From NCBI GenBank assembly GCA_046726415.1, contig JBKPAK010000085.1, positions 1 to 51,352 of the forward strand: DNA of 51,352 nt. Reading direction: 5' to 3'. Origin of the DNA: Candidatus Methylomirabilota bacterium. Lineage in GTDB: Bacteria; Methylomirabilota; Methylomirabilia; Rokubacteriales; CSP1-6. Made by a program: the position numbers and the translations under genes. Positions 5,766 through 16,653 of this stretch are shown piece after piece; position 1 is the stretch's first letter, and the number at the start of each line of letters is the position of its first letter. The notes below the pieces were generated by a model. The model made no database searches and was not told where the DNA came from. It was given only the letters and a program-made list of their open reading frames with translations.

Positions 5766-6974
5766 GTGACGCTCCGTCTCGCGATGCTGGCGGCGACCTG
5801 CGTGGTCGCGATGCTGGCTCCACCCCCTCTCTCCGGCGAAACGACCGCGGAGTTCGTGCGACGCCACTGGAAGCAGCCCATCGCTGCTCAGGGCGCGCCA
5901 TCGCCGCGCTTCTCGCCTCTCGAGGCCTCACTGGAACCGGCATCCTGTGGCACCTGCCATCCCGTGCAGTACGCGGACTGGCGGCGAAGCATCCACGCCG
6001 CGGCCAGCGGTCCCGGCGTTCTCGGCCAGCTCGTCGAGATGTGGAGGGCAGATCCGGCAGCCGCCTCGGGATGCTACGCCTGTCACGCTCCACTCGCCGA
6101 GCAACGGGCCTTCATCCGGACCGCCGCTGGTTTCGAGGAGAACCCGGCGTTCGTGTCGGTCCTCGCCGATCAGGGGGTGCCGTGCGCGTCGTGCCACGTG
6201 CGCAACCACGAACGCTTCGGACCCCCGCGCCGCGACGGTTCTCTCGCCAGCCGCGCTCCGCGCGAAAGCCTGCCGCATGGCGGCGTGACGCGGACGCCGG
6301 CATTCCTGGCCTCGGAGTTCTGCCGCTCGTGTCATCAGTTCGAACCGAACGGCCCCGCGCTCAACGGCAAGCTCCTTCAAGACACGTACAACGAGTGGAA
6401 GGCGAGCCGCTTCGCGCGGGCCGGCGTGCAGTGCCAGGACTGCCACATGCCGGATCGCCGGCACCAGTGGCGGGGTATTCACGACCCCGACATGGTCCGC
6501 GCGGGGCTGAGCATCAGCGCCGGCACCGACGCGGTCCGCTACCGACCGGGTGATTGGGCCTCGCTCGTCCTGACCGTGACCAGCGTGCGCGTGGGGCACG
6601 CCTTTCCGACCTACGTCACGCCCCGGGCAGTGATGCGCATCGAGCTCGTCGACGGCGAGGGCCGCGTGGTGCCGGGAAGCCGGACGGAGAAGATCATCGC
6701 GCGCGAGGTCGCCCTCGATCTGTCGAAGGAATATTTCGATCGGCGACTGCCGCCCGGGGGGCGCGCCAGTCTCGCCTATCGGCCGCGCCTCTCAGCGGCG
6801 GGGCTCAAGGCGCGGTTCAGCGTGGTGGTCGAGCCCGACGCATTCTATGTGCGCTTCTTCGAGGTGCTGCTGCGCCAGGGCGCCGGCAGCGGGGAGGCCC
6901 AGATCGGCGAGGCGCTGGAGGCCGCGCGCCGCTCGCTCTTCACCGTGTTCGCGCGCGAGGTGCCCCTGACGTAG
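5766..6974 (+). CDS. Exported multiheme (five CxxCH) c-type cytochrome
   Basis: Signal peptide; CGTCH, CYACH, CASCH, CRSCH and CQDCH; GHAFPT motif and a heme-free C-terminal region. Confidence 0.88.
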   Translation: MTLRLAMLAATCVVAMLAPPPLSGETTAEFVRRHWKQPIAAQGAPSPRFSPLEASLEPASCGTCHPVQYADWRRSIHAAASGPGVLGQLVEMWRADPAAASGCYACHAPLAEQRAFIRTAAGFEENPAFVSVLADQGVPCASCHVRNHERFGPPRRDGSLASRAPRESLPHGGVTRTPAFLASEFCRSCHQFEPNGPALNGKLLQDTYNEWKASRFARAGVQCQDCHMPDRRHQWRGIHDPDMVRAGLSISAGTDAVRYRPGDWASLVLTVTSVRVGHAFPTYVTPRAVMRIELVDGEGRVVPGSRTEKIIAREVALDLSKEYFDRRLPPGGRASLAYRPRLSAAGLKARFSVVVEPDAFYVRFFEVLLRQGAGSGEAQIGEALEAARRSLFTVFAREVPLT

Positions 6975-6986
6975 TGGGGGTGCTCG

Positions 6987-8612
6987 TCAAACCCCGAGGG
7001 CCGCGCCGTCGGCGCGCGGGTCCGAGCCGCCCCTGAGTCCGCTCGCATCGAGGCCGATCACCTGGACATGGCCCATCAGGTCGCTCCAGGCCTCGACGAC
7101 ACGCACGTCGTGGCCGCGGCGCTGGAGCGCTTCGACCACCGAAGGGGGAAAGCGCGATTCCAGACGAAGGGCGCGCGTCTGCTCACCCCATGTGCGCCCG
7201 AGGAGCCAGCGCGGGGCTTCGACGGCCGCCTGAGGGCCCAGCCCCCGGTCGACCATGCGGGTCACGATGGCCGCCTGCGTCTGCGGCTGTCCCTCGCCGC
7301 CCATAGTTCCATACACGAGACGCGGTCGGCCTCCCACCAGATACATCGACGGGATCAGCGTGTGGGCCGTGCGCGTGCGGGGTCTCAGCCGGTTCGGATG
7401 CGTCGGGTCCAGCGAGAAGAAGGCGCCGCGGTTCTGGAGCAGCACGCCGGTGTCCCCGGCCACGATGCCCGCTCCAAACTCGTGGTAGATGCTCTGGATG
7501 AGCGAGACGGCGTTGCCCTGGCGATCGGCGGCGACGATGGCGATCGTGTCGCCCGCGATGGGCGGGCCGGCGGCTGTCGCCACGGCGTGTGATGCGATGC
7601 GGCGCCGGCGGCGGGCCAGGCGAGCCGGGTCGAGGCAGCGCGCGACCGGAACCGGCACCACCGTGGGATCCGTCAGATATCGGTCGCGGTCTTCGAAGGC
7701 CAGCTTGGTCACCTCGACCACGAGATGCACGTACTCTTCCTCGGCCATCGACGGCAGGTCGAACCCCTCGAGGAGGGCCAGGATCGCGAGGGCGGCAAAG
7801 CCCTGGGTCGGCGGGGGAAAGCTGACCGCCTCCCCGCCGCGGTAGGGCACCCGCAGCGGCTCGACCCAGTCAGCGCGATGCGCCGCCAGGTCCTCCGCGG
7901 TCAGCGGGCTGCCGGCCTCGCGGGCCGCTCGGACGAGGCGGCGGCCGAGATCGCCCTGATAGAACTCGTCGGGGCCTCCATCGGCGATGCGCTCGAGGGT
8001 GCGGGCGAGGTCCGGCTGGATGAAGCGCTCGGCGGCCAGGCGATCGGGGTGAAAGATCGGCCAGAGCGTGCGCCGCACTTCGTCGGGTGCGCTGGCGCCG
8101 AACAGCGCCGGCGCCGAGGCGGTCACTCGCCGCTGACCGGCCGAGGGCGGGAAGCCCTGGGCCGCGTGCTGAATGGCCATGTCGAGGAGATGGCGCCACG
8201 TGATCGGCGAGCCCATGCGCCCGGCGCTGTGGCGATGCGCCTCCCACCAGCCGGATACCACACCGGGCACAGTCAGGGCCGCCGGTCCTCCGCGAGTGGG
8301 AATGGCCGTGCCATGGCGGGCGCGGTACGCGTCGAGATCGGCGGCCGCCGCCGAGCGCCCCGCCGCGTTGAGGGCGAGCAGACGACCGGCGCTCGCATCG
8401 TAGATAAGACAGAAGTTGTCGCCGCCGATCCCATTCATGTGCGGATAGACGACGGCCAGGGTGGTGGCTGCGGCCAGGGCCGCATCGACGGCGTTGCCGC
8501 CGCGCTCGAAGATGGCGCGCCCCGCTTCGGAGGCGAGATGGTGAGGTGAGGCCACGAGGCCGCGCGAGGCGCGCGCCTCGGGCCAGCGTGTAGGAGGGCT
8601 CACGCGCCTCAT
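6987..8612 (-). CDS. Gamma-glutamyltransferase family Ntn hydrolase (cytoplasmic, YwrD/HpxW-like)
   Basis: GGNAVDAA, GIGGDNF, GD-T nucleophile site (GDTIAIVAAD), LLQNRG, GTMGGEGQPQ and GSDPRADG. No signal peptide. Start ATG 8612 or GTG 8603. Confidence 0.9.
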   Translation of the reverse strand: MRRVSPPTRWPEARASRGLVASPHHLASEAGRAIFERGGNAVDAALAAATTLAVVYPHMNGIGGDNFCLIYDASAGRLLALNAAGRSAAAADLDAYRARHGTAIPTRGGPAALTVPGVVSGWWEAHRHSAGRMGSPITWRHLLDMAIQHAAQGFPPSAGQRRVTASAPALFGASAPDEVRRTLWPIFHPDRLAAERFIQPDLARTLERIADGGPDEFYQGDLGRRLVRAAREAGSPLTAEDLAAHRADWVEPLRVPYRGGEAVSFPPPTQGFAALAILALLEGFDLPSMAEEEYVHLVVEVTKLAFEDRDRYLTDPTVVPVPVARCLDPARLARRRRRIASHAVATAAGPPIAGDTIAIVAADRQGNAVSLIQSIYHEFGAGIVAGDTGVLLQNRGAFFSLDPTHPNRLRPRTRTAHTLIPSMYLVGGRPRLVYGTMGGEGQPQTQAAIVTRMVDRGLGPQAAVEAPRWLLGRTWGEQTRALRLESRFPPSVVEALQRRGHDVRVVEAWSDLMGHVQVIGLDASGLRGGSDPRADGAALGV

Positions 8613-8695
8613 GATAGCGTTCCTTCTCGGTCCGGACGCCGGGAACATCGCCCGCCGAGCGACGCGCTCGACATGGCGACCGACTCGGATAGCAT

Positions 8696-11536
8696 ATGAA
8701 CGGTCCCGAGGGCGTCATGAGCGGAGATTCGAGGGACATCGATACGGAGTGGTGGTACCCGGAGAAGAACACCCAGGAGCGCGGGCGCCTCCTCGCCCTG
8801 GGCGCGCCCTTCCGGCCCGGCCTGGACCTCCTGCCGCAGGTGCAAGAGGCGTGGGCGGTGGTGAAAGATCGCTGGGGACGTCCCGCCCACGGCGAGCCGC
8901 GCGAGGCGCTTCGCCGGGTCATTGCCCCGGTGCCGGCCATCGGTCCCAACGACGCGCTCGGATACGTCCTCTACGCAGGTCTGACCTACAACACGATGTT
9001 CGCCGCGCGCGGTGTGCCCATCTCCGTCTTCGATCTCCACGATTGGGATCTCCACATCCCCGGAAGCGGGGCCGTCGTCATGGTGGCCGCGCTCGGTGCC
9101 GAAGCCGCGCGCGAAGGCCGTCTGCGCGTCGGCGAGGTGCGGGTAGTCTACCCAGGCGTGTCCGATCTTCTGTCGCCGCGCGCCGGCGACGATCCCATGC
9201 ATGCGGACTTCAAGATCCAGGGCTACGAGACGCCGGACGGCACCTTCGCCCAGTTCGTCCGCTGCCAGGCGCCGGGACTGCTGAAGCACTCCGAGCGCCT
9301 CACGCTCCCCGCAGGTGCGTCGTTCATGCTCGATCTGGAGACGGTCTACAAGGCGCTCTACGACGTGGCCGGCGTTCAACCCGGCGAGCGCGTCTTCGTG
9401 GAAGGCGCGGCCGGCGGCACCGGACTCTACGCCGTCAGCTGTGCCGTCCTGCGCGGCGCGCTGGTCACCGGCCTCGTCTCCACCGAGGACAAGGGCGCGC
9501 TGATTCGCTCCCGCGGGGCGGCCGTCCATGTCAACCGCGCTCGTCCCGACCTGAAAGGTGTGTTTGCGATAGTGCCGTGCGACCTGCCGGGGCAGGCGGA
9601 ATGGCGCGCGGCCGGGGAGCGCTTCCTGGCCATGGTGCGCGAGGCGAACGAGGGATCGGCGATCGACGTGGTCGTCTCCTCGGTCGGGCGCGATCTCTTC
9701 GGCCGCATGATCGACCTGCTGGGTCCGGGCGGCCGGCTCGTGTTCTACGGCGCGACCAGTGGCTACAGCTTGGCGTTCCTGGGGAAGGAGGGAGCGATTT
9801 CCGCGCGTGAGATGCTCAGCCGCGCCGATCTCCGTCCCCACGAGGGTGTCGTCGTCTATTGCGGCACGTCGGACGCGGTGGGCGACGACGCGATCCAGGC
9901 GGCCCTGCGCGCGGGGGCCCGCGTGGTGGCCGTCGCGGGGAGCGATGGGGAAGCCGCGCGGCTTCAGGCGCGGTTCCCGCTCCTGCGCGGCGTGGTGAGC
10001 CTCGAGGCGCTGGCGCGCGGTCCGGGCTTTCGCTGGCCGGACACCATGCCGGACTACGACCTCGACGCCGCCGGCTACCGCGAGTACCAGGACCTCACCC
10101 TCAAGCCCTTCGGCCAGGCGATCGGTCGGCTCCTCGCGACGCCGGACAATCCACGGGGCAACCCCGACCTGATCGTCGAGCGCGCCGAGCAGGACACGCT
10201 CGGCGTGAGCGCCTTCATCGCGCGCCCGCACGGCGGCCGCGTGGTCTACCTGGACGGCGGCAAAGGGCGCCGCTTCTCGCTCTACGCGCCCAACATCTGG
10301 ATGCACCAGAAGCGCATCTTCTTCCCGACCTTCACCATTCTCGGCAGCCACCTCTCGAACGCGCACCAGGCGGCCGAGGTCGTGGAGCTCATCGATGCCG
10401 GCGCCCTCGGGGTGCACGCGCCCGTGGTCCATCCATGGGAGCAACTGGCCGAAGCCAACCAGGCCATCCACGAGAACCGCCACACCGGCACGCTTGCCGT
10501 TCGGGTCGGGGCCACCGACGCGCTCGACGGCGCGCGCTCCGCGCGGCAGGTGTACGAGGCGTGGGGTTCTCGCTTCATCGACACCGCCACGGTGCGAGTC
10601 CGGCTCGACCCGGTTCGGCGCGGGTTTCCAGATCTGGTTGCCCTCGTCACGATCGACTCGCCGCCCGCCAACGCCCTTGGACGAGGCACCCTGGAGGATC
10701 TCGAAACGGTTCTGGATCGGCTGGAGGCCGAGGGGGGCATGCGCGCGGCGGTGCTCACCGGAGCCGGATTGATGTTCGTGGCCGGCGCCGATATCCGCCA
10801 GCTTCGCGCCTTCGCCACGCCCGAGGATGTCGAGGCCTTCGCGGCGCGGGCCCAGCGGCTCTTCGCGCGGATCGCCGCGTCGCCGGCGCCGTTCGTCTCC
10901 GCCGTCGATGGCTATGCCCTCGGGGGCGGCAACGAGCTCCAGATGGCCTGCGCGTACCGCGTGGCGTCGGCGCGCGCGGAGATCGGCCAGCCAGAGATCA
11001 ATCTGCACGTGATTCCGGGATTCGGCGGGACGCAGATGCTCCCGCGCCTGGTCATCCGCCAGGCGCGGACCGGCGGCGCGCAAATGTACACGCTGCTCGC
11101 GCACGCGCTGACCATGCTGCTCGACGGACGCCGCCGTACTGCAGGCGAGGCCCGCGCGCTCGGGCTCGTCGACGAGGTGGCGGCGGCCGACGCGCTTTCC
11201 CGGGCGCTCGAGATCGCGGGAAGGATTGCCCGCGGCGAATTCACCGGGGCGCTGTGGTCGCCGCTGGCTCAGCGCGACACCATCGCCTTCCCCAACGCCG
11301 AGCGCGACGCCAACATCCAGCGGGTTCTCGCGCATCACGCGGCGATCCCTCGGGCGGCGGCGGCGCGCGCCATCGCGGACGTCGTGCGCCTGGGGCTGAC
11401 GAAGGGGTTGGCGATCGGACTGGCCCAAGAGGCGCGTCTCTTCGGCCAGCTCGTCGCATCCGAGGACGGGCGGGCGGGCATCGATCGCTTTCTCGGGCGA
11501 CGCTCGCTGCCGCTTCCCCTGCGTCCCCGGGGGTAA
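8696..11536 (+). CDS. Fusion of an N-terminal MDR-family enoyl-CoA reductase (propionyl-CoA-synthase/Ccr-like) and a C-terminal enoyl-CoA hydratase
   Basis: Reductase part: YAGLTYNT, HIPGSG, IQGYETPDGTFAQF, EGAAGGTG, WMHQKRI, GSHLSN. Crotonase part from about aa 630: PPANAL, FVAGADI, ALGGGNELQMAC, IGQPEINL, IPGFGGTQ. Start may be ATG 8717. Confidence 0.88.
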   Translation: MNGPEGVMSGDSRDIDTEWWYPEKNTQERGRLLALGAPFRPGLDLLPQVQEAWAVVKDRWGRPAHGEPREALRRVIAPVPAIGPNDALGYVLYAGLTYNTMFAARGVPISVFDLHDWDLHIPGSGAVVMVAALGAEAAREGRLRVGEVRVVYPGVSDLLSPRAGDDPMHADFKIQGYETPDGTFAQFVRCQAPGLLKHSERLTLPAGASFMLDLETVYKALYDVAGVQPGERVFVEGAAGGTGLYAVSCAVLRGALVTGLVSTEDKGALIRSRGAAVHVNRARPDLKGVFAIVPCDLPGQAEWRAAGERFLAMVREANEGSAIDVVVSSVGRDLFGRMIDLLGPGGRLVFYGATSGYSLAFLGKEGAISAREMLSRADLRPHEGVVVYCGTSDAVGDDAIQAALRAGARVVAVAGSDGEAARLQARFPLLRGVVSLEALARGPGFRWPDTMPDYDLDAAGYREYQDLTLKPFGQAIGRLLATPDNPRGNPDLIVERAEQDTLGVSAFIARPHGGRVVYLDGGKGRRFSLYAPNIWMHQKRIFFPTFTILGSHLSNAHQAAEVVELIDAGALGVHAPVVHPWEQLAEANQAIHENRHTGTLAVRVGATDALDGARSARQVYEAWGSRFIDTATVRVRLDPVRRGFPDLVALVTIDSPPANALGRGTLEDLETVLDRLEAEGGMRAAVLTGAGLMFVAGADIRQLRAFATPEDVEAFAARAQRLFARIAASPAPFVSAVDGYALGGGNELQMACAYRVASARAEIGQPEINLHVIPGFGGTQMLPRLVIRQARTGGAQMYTLLAHALTMLLDGRRRTAGEARALGLVDEVAAADALSRALEIAGRIARGEFTGALWSPLAQRDTIAFPNAERDANIQRVLAHHAAIPRAAAARAIADVVRLGLTKGLAIGLAQEARLFGQLVASEDGRAGIDRFLGRRSLPLPLRPRG

Positions 11537-13194: not shown

Positions 13195-16100
13195 ATGGAA
13201 ACTAAGCGCGATTTCTCGCTCGACGCCAAGTACCGCCAGCTCGACGGGCAGATCCTCCTCTCGGGGATCCAGGCGCTCGTCCGCCTGCCGCTCGATCAGC
13301 ACCGCGCCGACAAGCGCCGCGGTCGCCACACGGCTACCATGATCTCCGGGTATCGCGGCTCACCGCTCGGCGGGCTGGACCAGACGCTCGAGCGCAATGG
13401 GCCGCTGTTGCGCGAGCATCACGTCCACTTCATCTCCGGCGTCAACGAGGATCTGGGCGCGACCATCGTGTTCGGCAGTCAGCTCGCGAACCTCTTCCCC
13501 CGGCCGAAGTACGACGGCGTCCTCGGGATGTGGTACGGCAAGGGACCCGGGGTGGATCGCAGCGGCGATGCCTTCAAGCACGCCAATTACGCGGGCGTCG
13601 GACGGGAGGGCGGCGTCCTCGCCGTCGGCGGGGACGATCCGCTGTCCAAGTCGTCGACGTTGCCCATCCACTCCGAGGTGGCGTTCTACGACGCGTCCTT
13701 CCCGGTAGTGTTTCCCGGCAACATCCAGGAGATCCTGGACTTGGGCCGCCTCGGCTTCGAGCTGTCGCGGTACTCGGGTCTCTGGGTGGGCTTCAAGATC
13801 GTCACCAACGTGGCGGACGAGATCGGCACCGCCCTCGTGTCGCCCGACCGCGTCGTCATCGAGGATCCTGGGTTCCTCTACGAGGGCCGGCCGTGGCGGC
13901 ACACGCAAAATCCCACCTTGCTCCCGCCCTTCGGCCTCGAGATGGAGCGAGAGATCAACTACGGGCGGCTGGAGGCGGCCAAGGCCTTCGCGGCGGCCAA
14001 CCGGCTCAATGCCATCACCGTGCCCGCGCGCAACGCCTGGCTGGGCATCGCGGCCCCAGGCAAGACGTACTACGACCTCCGCGAAGCGCTGCTGGAGCTG
14101 GGACTGGACGACGCCGCTCTCGAGCGCTACGGCATCCGCCTGCTGCGGATCGGCATGCTCTTCCCGATGGAACCGGGCATCGTGCGGGAATTCGCCCGAG
14201 GCTTGGAGGAGATCCTCGTCGTCGAGGAGAAGCGCTCCTTCGTCGAAGTCTTCATCCGCGATGTCCTCTATAACCTCGCTGAGCATCCGCGGGTCCTCGG
14301 CAAGCGCGATCTGGAGAATCGGCCACTGGTGCCGGCCCACGGGGAGCTGGACGCGGATCGCATCGCCCAGATCGTGGCATCGCGGATCGAGCGACGGATT
14401 CCCCTGGGCTCGATCACCGCGCGGGTGGCCCTGCTGGAGGCGCTGCGCGAGCGGCCGGCGCCCCTCACCATCGCCCGCCAGCCCTACTTCTGCTCGGGCT
14501 GCCCCCACAACCGGTCCACGGTGGTGCCCGACGGTTCGATGGCCGCCGCGGGGATCGGTTGCCACGGCATGGCGTTGGGGATGCCCGAGCGCCGAACCTT
14601 GGGCATCACCCACATGGGTGGCGAGGGCGCGCAGTGGGTGGGCATGGCCCCGTTCACCGAGATGCCGCACATGTTCCAGAACCTCGGCGACGGCACGCTG
14701 TTCCACTCGGGCTCGCTGGCCATCCGCCAGGCGGTCGCCGCGGGAACCCACATCACCTACAAGATCCTCTACAACTCCACGGTGGCCATGACCGGCGGCC
14801 AGGACGCCGCCGGGGCCATGCCGGTTCCCGAGCTGACGCGCGCCTTGCAGGCCGAGGGCGTGGCGAAGATCTTCGTGGTCACGGACGAACCTGGGAAGTA
14901 CGGCAAGGGCGTGGCGTGGGCCGATGGCGTCGAGGTCTGGCATCGCGATCGACTCGACGAGGCGCAGCAGATCCTGCGCGACACTCCGGGCGTCACCGCG
15001 CTCGTGTACGACCAGCGGTGCGCCGCCGAGAAGCGGCGGCTGCGCAAGCGCGGCAAGCTGCCCGATCCGGCCATGCGGGTGTACATCAACGAGGCGGTCT
15101 GCGAGGGGTGCGGCGACTGCGGAGTGAAGAGCAACTGCCTGTCCGTCCATCCGGTGGAGACCGAGTTCGGGCGCAAGACGCAGATCCATCAGTCGTCGTG
15201 CAACAAGGACTACTCCTGCCTGCGCGGCGATTGCCCGTCCTTCCTCACCGCGATCCCGCTGGGCCCGCCGAAGAAGCGGGAACGGAAGATCTTCACGGTC
15301 GAGCGCCCGCTTCCCGAACCCGTCCTCAAGGTTCCCCGCACGAGCAACGTCTACATGATGGGGATCGGCGGAACCGGTGTAGTGACCGTCAACCAGGTCC
15401 TGGGGACGGCGGCCCTTCTGGACGGCGCGCATGTGCGCGGTCTCGACCAGACGGGGCTCAGCCAGAAGGGCGGACCGGTCGTGTCCCACCTCAAGATCTC
15501 GGATGCTCCCCACGAGGTCTCCAACAAGATCGCGGCGGGCGAGGCGGACTGCTACCTCGGGTTCGACATCCTGGTGGCGACATCGCCGACCAATCTCGAC
15601 CACGCCCGGCCGGACAAGACCGTGGCGGTGATCTCGACCAGCCAGGTTCCCACTGGCGCCATGGTCACCCATACGGACGTGCAATTCCCGGAGACGAATG
15701 GCCTGCTCCAGTCGATCGATCGCGTGACCCGCAAGGACGAGAACGTCTACCTCGACGCGCTGGGGCTGGCCGAGCAGCTGTTCGGGGACCACATGGCGGC
15801 CAACCTCATCGCCCTCGGCGCCGCCTACCAAGCCGGGGCCATCGCGGTGAGCGACCAGGCCATCGAGGAAGCCATCGCCCTCAATGGCGTGTCGGTGGCC
15901 ATGAACACGCAGGCCTTCCGGGCCGGGCGCCTCGCCGTGATCGATCCGGCTGCGCTGGAGCGCGAGCGCAAGCCACGCCTCGGTGCGGTGAGCGCGGAGC
16001 CGGTGCTGAGTGCCGAGGCGCGCGCTCTGGTGGACGGCGTGGGCGCGACCGGGGAGCTGCGGCGACTGCTCAGCATCCGGGTGCCCGAGCTGATCGAGTA

Positions 16101-16653
16101 TCAGGACGCCGCCTACGCGCGGCAGTACGTGGAATTCGTGAAGCGCGCGCTGGCGGCGGAGCCGGACGGCCGGGCGAGCTTCAGCGAGGGCGTGGCCCGG
16201 TATCTGTTCAAGCTGATGGCCTACAAGGACGAGTACGAGGTGGCCCGACTCCATCTCAAGAGCGATCTCGCGGCCAGGCTCGCCGCCGAATACCCGGAGG
16301 GCGTCGCGGTTCAGTACCACCTGCACCCGCCGATGCTGCGGGCGCTCGGGTGGAAGAACAAGATCAAGCTCGGCTCCTGGTTCGACGGCGCCTTCCGCAT
16401 GCTGGCCCGCCTGAAGGGACTGCGGGGCACCGCCCTCGATCCCTTCGGGCGCGCCGAAGTCCGCCGGGTGGAGCGCGCCCTCATCGGGGAGTATCGCGCC
16501 CTCCTCGAGAAGGCCATGGCCGGCCTCTCGCCCGAGAGCTACGAGCGGGCGGTGAAGCTCGCCACCCTCCCGGACGTCATCCGCGGCTACGAGGAGGTCA
16601 AGCTTCGCAACGTCCAGCAGTTCCGCGACGAGGTCCGCGCCCTCGGCTTCTGA
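13195..16653 (+). CDS. Single-chain indolepyruvate:ferredoxin oxidoreductase family protein
   Basis: SGYRGSPLGG, FCSGCPH, GIGCH, GDGT (TPP), CEGCGDC...C ferredoxin motif, GIGGTGV and GLSQKGG beta domain, YKDEYEVAR; RBS GAGGAG. Confidence 0.95.
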   Translation: METKRDFSLDAKYRQLDGQILLSGIQALVRLPLDQHRADKRRGRHTATMISGYRGSPLGGLDQTLERNGPLLREHHVHFISGVNEDLGATIVFGSQLANLFPRPKYDGVLGMWYGKGPGVDRSGDAFKHANYAGVGREGGVLAVGGDDPLSKSSTLPIHSEVAFYDASFPVVFPGNIQEILDLGRLGFELSRYSGLWVGFKIVTNVADEIGTALVSPDRVVIEDPGFLYEGRPWRHTQNPTLLPPFGLEMEREINYGRLEAAKAFAAANRLNAITVPARNAWLGIAAPGKTYYDLREALLELGLDDAALERYGIRLLRIGMLFPMEPGIVREFARGLEEILVVEEKRSFVEVFIRDVLYNLAEHPRVLGKRDLENRPLVPAHGELDADRIAQIVASRIERRIPLGSITARVALLEALRERPAPLTIARQPYFCSGCPHNRSTVVPDGSMAAAGIGCHGMALGMPERRTLGITHMGGEGAQWVGMAPFTEMPHMFQNLGDGTLFHSGSLAIRQAVAAGTHITYKILYNSTVAMTGGQDAAGAMPVPELTRALQAEGVAKIFVVTDEPGKYGKGVAWADGVEVWHRDRLDEAQQILRDTPGVTALVYDQRCAAEKRRLRKRGKLPDPAMRVYINEAVCEGCGDCGVKSNCLSVHPVETEFGRKTQIHQSSCNKDYSCLRGDCPSFLTAIPLGPPKKRERKIFTVERPLPEPVLKVPRTSNVYMMGIGGTGVVTVNQVLGTAALLDGAHVRGLDQTGLSQKGGPVVSHLKISDAPHEVSNKIAAGEADCYLGFDILVATSPTNLDHARPDKTVAVISTSQVPTGAMVTHTDVQFPETNGLLQSIDRVTRKDENVYLDALGLAEQLFGDHMAANLIALGAAYQAGAIAVSDQAIEEAIALNGVSVAMNTQAFRAGRLAVIDPAALERERKPRLGAVSAEPVLSAEARALVDGVGATGELRRLLSIRVPELIEYQDAAYARQYVEFVKRALAAEPDGRASFSEGVARYLFKLMAYKDEYEVARLHLKSDLAARLAAEYPEGVAVQYHLHPPMLRALGWKNKIKLGSWFDGAFRMLARLKGLRGTALDPFGRAEVRRVERALIGEYRALLEKAMAGLSPESYERAVKLATLPDVIRGYEEVKLRNVQQFRDEVRALGF

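Follow-up and report, generated by a model that had tools for sequence, protein, structure and literature searches.

A ligase-free relative of propionyl-CoA synthase in Rokubacteria: a candidate natural reductive carboxylase

The gene at positions 8696..11536 (+) of contig JBKPAK010000085.1, from a Candidatus Methylomirabilota genome (assembly GCA_046726415.1; the whole 51,352-nucleotide stretch analysed is referred to here as the window), raises the question of whether a natural relative of propionyl-CoA synthase (PCS) incorporates CO2, as the crotonyl-CoA carboxylase/reductases (Ccr) do, or reduces its substrate as PCS does. Reductive carboxylases of the Ecr type, the enoyl-CoA carboxylases/reductases, rank with the fastest CO2-fixing enzymes known. 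A sequence-only reading of the locus had described the product as a ligase-less, domain-permuted PCS-like enzyme and had taken it for a possible reductive carboxylase, a suggestion that the comparisons below support in part. We give an even chance to the gene product being a natural 3-hydroxyacyl-CoA dehydratase/enoyl-CoA reductive carboxylase. Its C-terminal crotonase domain would remove water from a short 3-hydroxyacyl-CoA, either 3-hydroxypropionyl-CoA or 3-hydroxybutyryl-CoA, to give the enoyl-CoA. The N-terminal Ecr-type domain would next pass a hydride from NADPH to the enoyl-CoA and trap the enolate with CO2, making (2S)-methylmalonyl-CoA or ethylmalonyl-CoA instead of a plain saturated acyl-CoA. 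The fixation of CO2, the use of a C3 or C4 substrate and the substitution for Ccr in genomes that lack it are what we infer from the observations that follow.

Domain order and place among PCS-like proteins

The open reading frame (ORF) is intact, by ORF list and translation, and encodes a 946-aa protein in which a reductase domain is followed, after a short linker, by a dehydratase domain, with no ligase, much as had been described. Pfam recognizes ADH_zinc_N (residues 241-356), ADH_zinc_N_2 (491-600) and ECH_1 (647-845; 127.6 bits against a cut-off of 27), and finds no AMP-binding domain. In a phmmer search of all PDB sequences the top match is the Erythrobacter PCS (6eqo_A, 1850 aa, E 3.8e-196), matched in two stretches. 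Residues 28-630, the enoyl-CoA reductase domain of Ecr/PCS-type MDR kind (8777..10585, on the plus strand like all other features of the gene), align with PCS 1229-1846 at 508.9 bits, and residues 647-944, the crotonase-fold 3-hydroxyacyl-CoA dehydratase domain (10634..11527), align with PCS 905-1211 at 154.1 bits. Since these stretches match the PCS modules in reversed sequence, the domain order is swapped, with the reductase first and the dehydratase second. A divergently oriented gamma-glutamyltranspeptidase (GGT) gene (6987-8648, -) lies directly upstream, so that there is no ligase remnant in front of the gene and the ORF is not cut off. From these matches the product is predicted to be a bifunctional, ligase-free PCS relative.

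The reductase alignment with PCS is single and unbroken and spans the large PCS insertion, which bears out the PCS-like length earlier claimed for this region; the segments AREGRLRVG, SDLLSP..GDDPM and RFSLYAPNIW, which had been singled out as PCS-like, do align with PCS counterparts. Relative to plain Ccr the insertion covers roughly residues 362-523 (9779..10264, boundaries approximate), as judged from the gap in the Ccr alignment: Ccr 4gi2 aligns with residues 41-361 and resumes at 472-623, whereas PCS aligns straight through. The insertion also splits the match to TIGR01751, the NCBIfam Ccr model, which scores 217 bits in two stretches, below its curated cut-off of 378.55. The NADPH motif GAAGGTG (residues 237-243) is invariant in a 63-row family alignment, as are the two catalytic glutamates of the crotonase domain, E747 in GGGNE (743-747) and E767 in GQPE (764-767), both kept as the earlier reading had it. 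An AlphaFold model of the whole chain (63 family rows) has a mean pLDDT (predicted local distance difference test) of 78 and shows the insertion as a confident alpha/beta subdomain, mostly at 85-95; over residues 89-190 of the catalytic subdomain, the stretch holding N99, S124, Y177 and E178, pLDDT is <50, so the active site is not readable from this model.

A word-indexed protein search returned 310 proteins of near length; among the 120 listed, identity to the query is 69-99%, most are 920-960 aa long with the same Pfam set, and more than 100 are distinct, intact and ligase-free. Of 241 proteins sorted by domain order, 118 are of ligase-dehydratase-reductase type and 113 of reductase-dehydratase type with nothing long at the N-terminus; in 9 the N-terminal part is longer, and 1 remained unclassified. 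The tree (IQ-TREE quick, LG+G4, 82 rows, 625 columns, rooted on the Ccr-length rows, with two large groups thinned to every 9th and every 5th row) unites all insertion-bearing sequences in one clade (SH-aLRT 100). Inside it lie four lineages, their mutual branching left open by the tree: the query family (24 rows, SH-aLRT 100), canonical PCS (37 rows, 99) and two small groups of giant multidomain proteins. The query family stands beside, not inside, the canonical PCS clade.

Absence of the ligase holds for the window gene and for most of its relatives, and fails for seven, of about 1580-1670 aa, in which an N-terminal AMP-binding ligase precedes the same reductase-dehydratase pair (ACAS_N, AMP-binding and AMP-binding_C were checked with Pfam in P0021, P0024 and P0109 and taken from precomputed Pfam columns for the others). 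This ligase is 38% identical to that of PCS over residues 245-658, lacks the PCS ligase insertions and scores higher against acetyl-CoA synthetases (8rpk, 424.4 bits). Ligase-free and ligase-bearing forms are interleaved in the family tree, which points to ligase gain, loss or gene splitting more than once. The same interleaving could suggest that the gene is what remains of a ligase-bearing enzyme that is decaying or has lost its function, and broken copies do exist: those of G132 (the window's genus) and G136 have in-frame TGA codons, and L048:10001-12648 is a frameshifted remnant with several frame changes and GHPR instead of GQPE. For the window gene such decay seems very improbable, its ORF being intact, its catalytic residues, its NADPH motif and more than 300 columns being invariant across 63 relatives at 70-85% identity, and intact ligase-free proteins being so many among the matches listed.

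Other arrangements of PCS-like reductases were seen in passing. P0248, P0324, P0203 and P0245 have further domain orders: one protein, of 2388 aa, runs crotonase-ligase-reductase, another, of 2497 aa, has a crotonase domain at each end, a third, of 2557 aa, fuses glutamate dehydrogenase, crotonase, ligase and reductase, and the longest has 6910 aa. P0389, P0286 and P0383 are giant fusions of an Ecr/PCS-like reductase with an HpcH/CitE-type lyase, a 3-hydroxyacyl-CoA dehydrogenase, an epimerase-like domain of glyoxalase fold and a MaoC hydratase domain; such a chain seems to unite several steps of a route of the ethylmalonyl-CoA type.

The CO2 pocket

In the Kitasatospora enzyme, KsCcr, the CO2 pocket consists of N81, F170, E171 and H365, with T82 and S119 as second-shell partners that orient N81, according to the passages of PMC6628652 that concern these residues. 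Alignment of the query with KsCcr (6na4/6owe), MeCcr and PCS places N99, Y177, E178 and H552 at the four pocket positions, and T100 and S124 at the two second-shell positions. The residues named in the sequence-only reading (Y-N99-T100, G-Y177-E178, W-M536 and G-S-H552) are therefore as it gave them, the nucleotide position of residue n following from 8696 + 3(n-1), and its four pocket residues align as it had supposed. The Asn loop, T97-Y98-N99-T100-M101-F102 (8984..9001), contains N99 as the putative CO2 anchor and T100 as its putative second-shell partner; the triplet Y98-N99-T100 aligns with the identical Y-N81-T82 of KsCcr and with F-N1301-D1302 of PCS (PCS residue numbers, here and below, are counted from the alignment starts). 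S124 (9065..9067), in a GS aligned to the GS of KsCcr, is the equivalent of S119, with its second-shell hydrogen bond to the Asn. Y177-E178 (9224..9229) lie in QGYET, aligned to WGFET of KsCcr and WGYET of MeCcr, and correspond to F170-E171; the F170Y variant of KsCcr is still fully carboxylating, as stated in the same passages (PMC6628652). W535-M536 (10298..10303) has Met at the position of T1753 in Erythrobacter PCS (W1752-T1753), and G550-S551-H552 (10343..10351), with H552 equivalent to KsCcr H365, reads GSH as in Ccr, against GTH (H1769) in 6eqo. Within the family T97, Y98, N99, T100 and F102 are invariant in 63/63 rows, as are S124 and the GSH.

The contrast with PCS extends across the families. 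In a MAFFT alignment of 271 reductase parts, N-T, Y-E, W-M and H are found in 122/122 reductase-dehydratase relatives (114 plain and 8 with a long N-terminal part), whereas canonical PCS has N-D in 118/118 and, at the Trp position, W-T in 82, W-M in 35 and W-V in 1. Twelve proteins above the TIGR01751 cut-off served as the Ccr set; after the pocket Asn they have G (2), N (4), S (2) or T (4) and in no case D, and at the Trp position W-M in 8/12, W-L in 1 and W-T in 1, 2 rows being not alignable there. Nor does Asp follow the Asn in P0248, P0324, P0203 or P0245. Both of the earlier observations, no Asp after the Asn and a Ccr-type Met after the Trp, are thus upheld. The residue after the Asn is a family-level difference in the sampled set, and Asp is the mark of canonical PCS alone; the position of the query family as its own clade beside canonical PCS in the Ccr-rooted tree argues that Asp is a derived mark. 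By alignment the query family carries the KsCcr state, Thr. The states named for the query go beyond chance, since all aligned relatives of its architecture have them. Still, no row of the 122 falls below 69% identity to the query, and over 300 columns of the 63-row alignment do not vary, so that the constancy of any single column is of limited weight.

Several observations speak against carboxylation. PCS keeps all four first-shell residues and nonetheless reduces, its carboxylation being called 'almost no' or 'latent' in the portions of two reviews that touch on it (PMC7918591, PMC10176493), so these residues do not discriminate. Asp is no simple on/off switch either: KsCcr T82D, in the relevant passages of PMC6628652, is >50-fold slower with carboxylation almost complete, an effect on rate and not on product, and the Asp/Thr difference alone is thus no proof of a functional switch. 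At two positions next to the pocket Asn, on which Ccr and PCS agree, the family has private states, T97 for Asn and F102 for Trp, and it has GSG (G125) and QGYE (Q175) as PCS does, where Ccr has GSD and WGYE. An apparent clustering of Ccr-like states near the pocket, seen with 4 Ccr rows, was gone with 12 (3 of 5 vs 3 of 9, p = 0.58) and was dropped as evidence.

The four pocket residues kept in PCS, the private T97 and F102 and the G125 and Q175 shared with PCS favour a plain bifunctional 3-hydroxyacyl-CoA dehydratase/enoyl-CoA reductase, a PCS without its ligase, whose propionyl-CoA (or butyryl-CoA) would then be carboxylated by a propionyl-CoA carboxylase (PCC) that requires ATP. The best solved relative is after all PCS, by both the 508.9- and the 154.1-bit match and by the insertion common to both, and the source annotations, by automatic naming, call relatives acrylyl-CoA reductase/3-hydroxypropionyl-CoA dehydratase. 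To a plain reductase we assign a substantial chance, if one clearly short of even: the N-D of all canonical PCS is absent from every family member, Thr and Met are Ccr states, and the near-exclusivity with Ccr described below would be unexpected for unrelated jobs, though clade history could still yield it.

As far as sequence goes, the family-wide split between N-T and N-D and the near-exclusive distribution with Ccr lend strength to the carboxylase reading. In its fullest form this makes the protein a natural 'awake' PCS relative which, in one chain, would take a 3-hydroxyacyl-CoA to an alkylmalonyl-CoA by dehydration and then ATP-free reductive carboxylation, and would have taken over the job of Ccr in part of the Rokubacteria, with the ligase-bearing sisters starting from the free 3-hydroxy acid; this whole we hold to be a little less than evenly probable.

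Distribution, neighbours and pathway context

Matches across both domains were found at 41 loci (L009-L049, of 59 returned), nearly all of them in metagenome-assembled genomes of Methylomirabilota/Rokubacteria; L049, from the Gammaproteobacteria, is of canonical type, with dehydratase then reductase, NFND and GTH. Of 151 genomes drawn evenly from the phylum, 29 have the enzyme (called at E <= 1e-50), and 28 of these belong to the Rokubacteria family of the source genome (f1; 94 sampled genomes including the source genome). Ccr, called above the TIGR01751 cut-off, occurs in 59/151, and f1 has 42 matches at E <= 1e-90. Within f1, 27 genomes have this enzyme only, 41 have Ccr only (among them G029 and G101, flagged unpublished), 25 have neither and one has both; in the latter, G021, Ccr is present as a partial ORF lying where a contig ends. 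Counted by genome the exclusivity gives a Fisher's p of 4e-8, the genomes being related and not independent. Counted by genus (30 genera listed: both 2, enzyme only 7, Ccr only 12, neither 9) it is not significant (p = 0.12), a point on the side against the carboxylase reading; the mixed genera are g10 (the enzyme in G150, Ccr in G023) and g8 (both in G021, Ccr in G093). Were the enzyme a stand-in for Ccr, near mutual exclusivity would be expected, and clade history could also produce it; with genomes that are not independent it is suggestive only.

The source genome itself (7.6 Mb, 352 contigs, 98% complete) has no match above the TIGR01751 cut-off. The slot between luciferase-like and DUF6152 genes, which is the Ccr site in relatives, is occupied there by an intact generic MDR protein of ~347 aa (C144:14552-15592, -); it was considered as a Ccr remnant and ruled out, being intact, 24% identical to Ccr and without Ccr motifs. 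In eight Ccr-bearing relatives (e.g. G117, G061, G068 and G055) the frame around Ccr is 690-810 aa long vs about 430, and could reflect an N-terminal extension or, the DNA being GC-rich, read-through by chance.

ORFs of the 41 related loci and the window were clustered, and cluster representatives were scanned with Pfam. No acyl-CoA pathway genes are conserved beside the gene in this set, a further point on the side against carboxylation. The recurrent neighbours are GGT, a MetE-like protein, a metallo-beta-lactamase, an NYN domain protein, an SNase, a luciferase-like oxidoreductase, an indolepyruvate-oxidoreductase-like protein, an RF-1 domain protein and adenine deaminase, and their conservation is ordinary synteny. 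At L019, L021, L025-L029, L032 and L046-L048 one or both of two gene sets lie between GGT and the gene, namely asparagine synthase with an HPr-kinase-like gene and NTP_transf_5 with radical SAM/SPASM; these look like peptide-modification clusters and are absent from the window.

The presence of such sets upstream in many relatives, together with the Ecr homologues AntE and CinF among the PDB matches, could suggest that the enzyme supplies unusual alkylmalonyl-CoA extender units to a polyketide or other secondary-metabolite pathway and not to central metabolism, a role that many Ecr homologues have. We think this improbable, since the conserved neighbourhood of the 41 loci has no polyketide synthase or acyl-carrier genes, the upstream set is missing in the window, the gene is single-copy and the neighbours are conserved as general synteny only.

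About 1.7 kb downstream of the gene the window encodes a 1152-aa indolepyruvate-ferredoxin-oxidoreductase-like protein (13195-16653, +; POR + DUF6537), which recurs downstream in 24/42 clustered sources. Known relatives of this protein convert 2-oxo acids to acyl-CoA. On the other side of GGT lies a multihaem cytochrome gene (5766-6974, +; MtrC/MtrF-like, with c554 and c7 Pfam matches), which adjoins an AllH-like gene and an M1 aminopeptidase.

Elsewhere in the source genome a methylmalonyl-CoA epimerase scores above cut-off (124.5 bits) and three acyl-CoA mutases are encoded; these enzymes could take a carboxylated product onward. One of the mutases is adjoined by a PCC-beta-like carboxyltransferase, and propionyl-CoA, the product of a plain dehydratase/reductase, would thus be manageable too; with the epimerase, the mutases and the PCC-beta-like gene all present, either propionyl-CoA or methylmalonyl-CoA could be used. 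Orthologues of two of the three mutases were followed, one being near-universal (80/93) and the other present in 60/93 and uncorrelated with Ccr or this enzyme. No PCS-type ligase was found elsewhere in the source genome, the best tblastn match (40% identical) being an acetate-CoA ligase (NCBIfam, 1031.7 bits). Isocitrate-lyase-family matches are weak and partial only (best 66 bits). Contig C103 of the source genome encodes a CitE-like lyase, one MaoC protein and, together with a crotonase, a CoA-transferase, but these form no clear cluster. Around Ccr in two Ccr-bearing relatives there are no ethylmalonyl-CoA pathway genes.

Should reductive carboxylation be the true activity, the family would be a ready template for synthetic CO2-fixation cycles, combining a PCS dehydratase/reductase scaffold with a Ccr-type pocket, and would show which changes switched carboxylation off in canonical PCS. 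It would also add an unrecognised CO2-incorporating step to the Rokubacteria, a widespread soil and groundwater group, and the ligase-bearing sisters would convert a free 3-hydroxy acid to a carboxylated CoA ester in one protein, an activity that has been engineered into PCS. Should the enzyme be a plain reductase instead, the Thr and Met states would be shown to be insufficient for carboxylation, which would also be informative.

Comparison with known systems

Full-text literature searches found no reductase-dehydratase PCS relative, no natural acrylyl-CoA carboxylase of such type and no Rokubacteria PCS-like enzyme, although supplements of the primary PCS papers could bear on the point; an already characterised family with this architecture, which the sequence-only reading had allowed for, was likewise not found there. 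The same two catalytic modules are present in the PCS of Erythrobacter sp. NAP1 (6eqo) and its homologues in Chloroflexota, Proteobacteria and Gemmatimonadota. Canonical PCS (1750-1890 aa) has an Ecr-type reductase with the same large insertion, 42-48% identical to that of the query, and a crotonase dehydratase with both Glu, and it shares with the query the four first-shell pocket residues. PCS is also marked by a closed multicatalytic reaction chamber, in which acrylyl-CoA is sequestered. Unlike the query, with its reductase, dehydratase and no ligase, PCS is ordered ligase, dehydratase, reductase; where relatives of the query do have a ligase, it is N-terminal and without the PCS ligase insertions. 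N-T, W-M and GSH in the query stand against N-D, W-T and GTH in 6eqo, and the query family is a separate clade. The query departs from canonical PCS in its architecture as well as in its pocket state.

With Ccr/Ecr (KsCcr 6owe and MeCcr 4gi2; TIGR01751) the query shares N-T, S, Y/F-E, W-M and GSH at aligned positions, as well as the NADPH-type MDR fold. Identity is in this case about 32-33%, and the query differs in its ~160-aa extra insertion, in its fusion to a dehydratase, and in having GSG, QGYE, T97 and F102 where Ccr has GSD, WGYE, N and W.

A third comparison is with engineered PCS. Bernhardsgrütter et al., in JACS in 2019, reportedly obtained a carboxylating PCS through the changes D1302S and T1753M. 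The query differs from wild-type PCS at both of these positions, which we take to be the engineered ones, having a hydroxyl residue in place of D1302 and Met in place of T1753, presumably the same direction as the engineered changes. In the relevant sections of the HOPAC paper (PMC10266731), PCS is described as having needed engineering, with a cost in rate, before it carboxylated acrylyl-CoA in synthetic cycles like HOPAC, and the engineered Pcs as giving 97% carboxylation at saturating CO2. The query, unlike that enzyme, is a natural protein, of another clade and another architecture.

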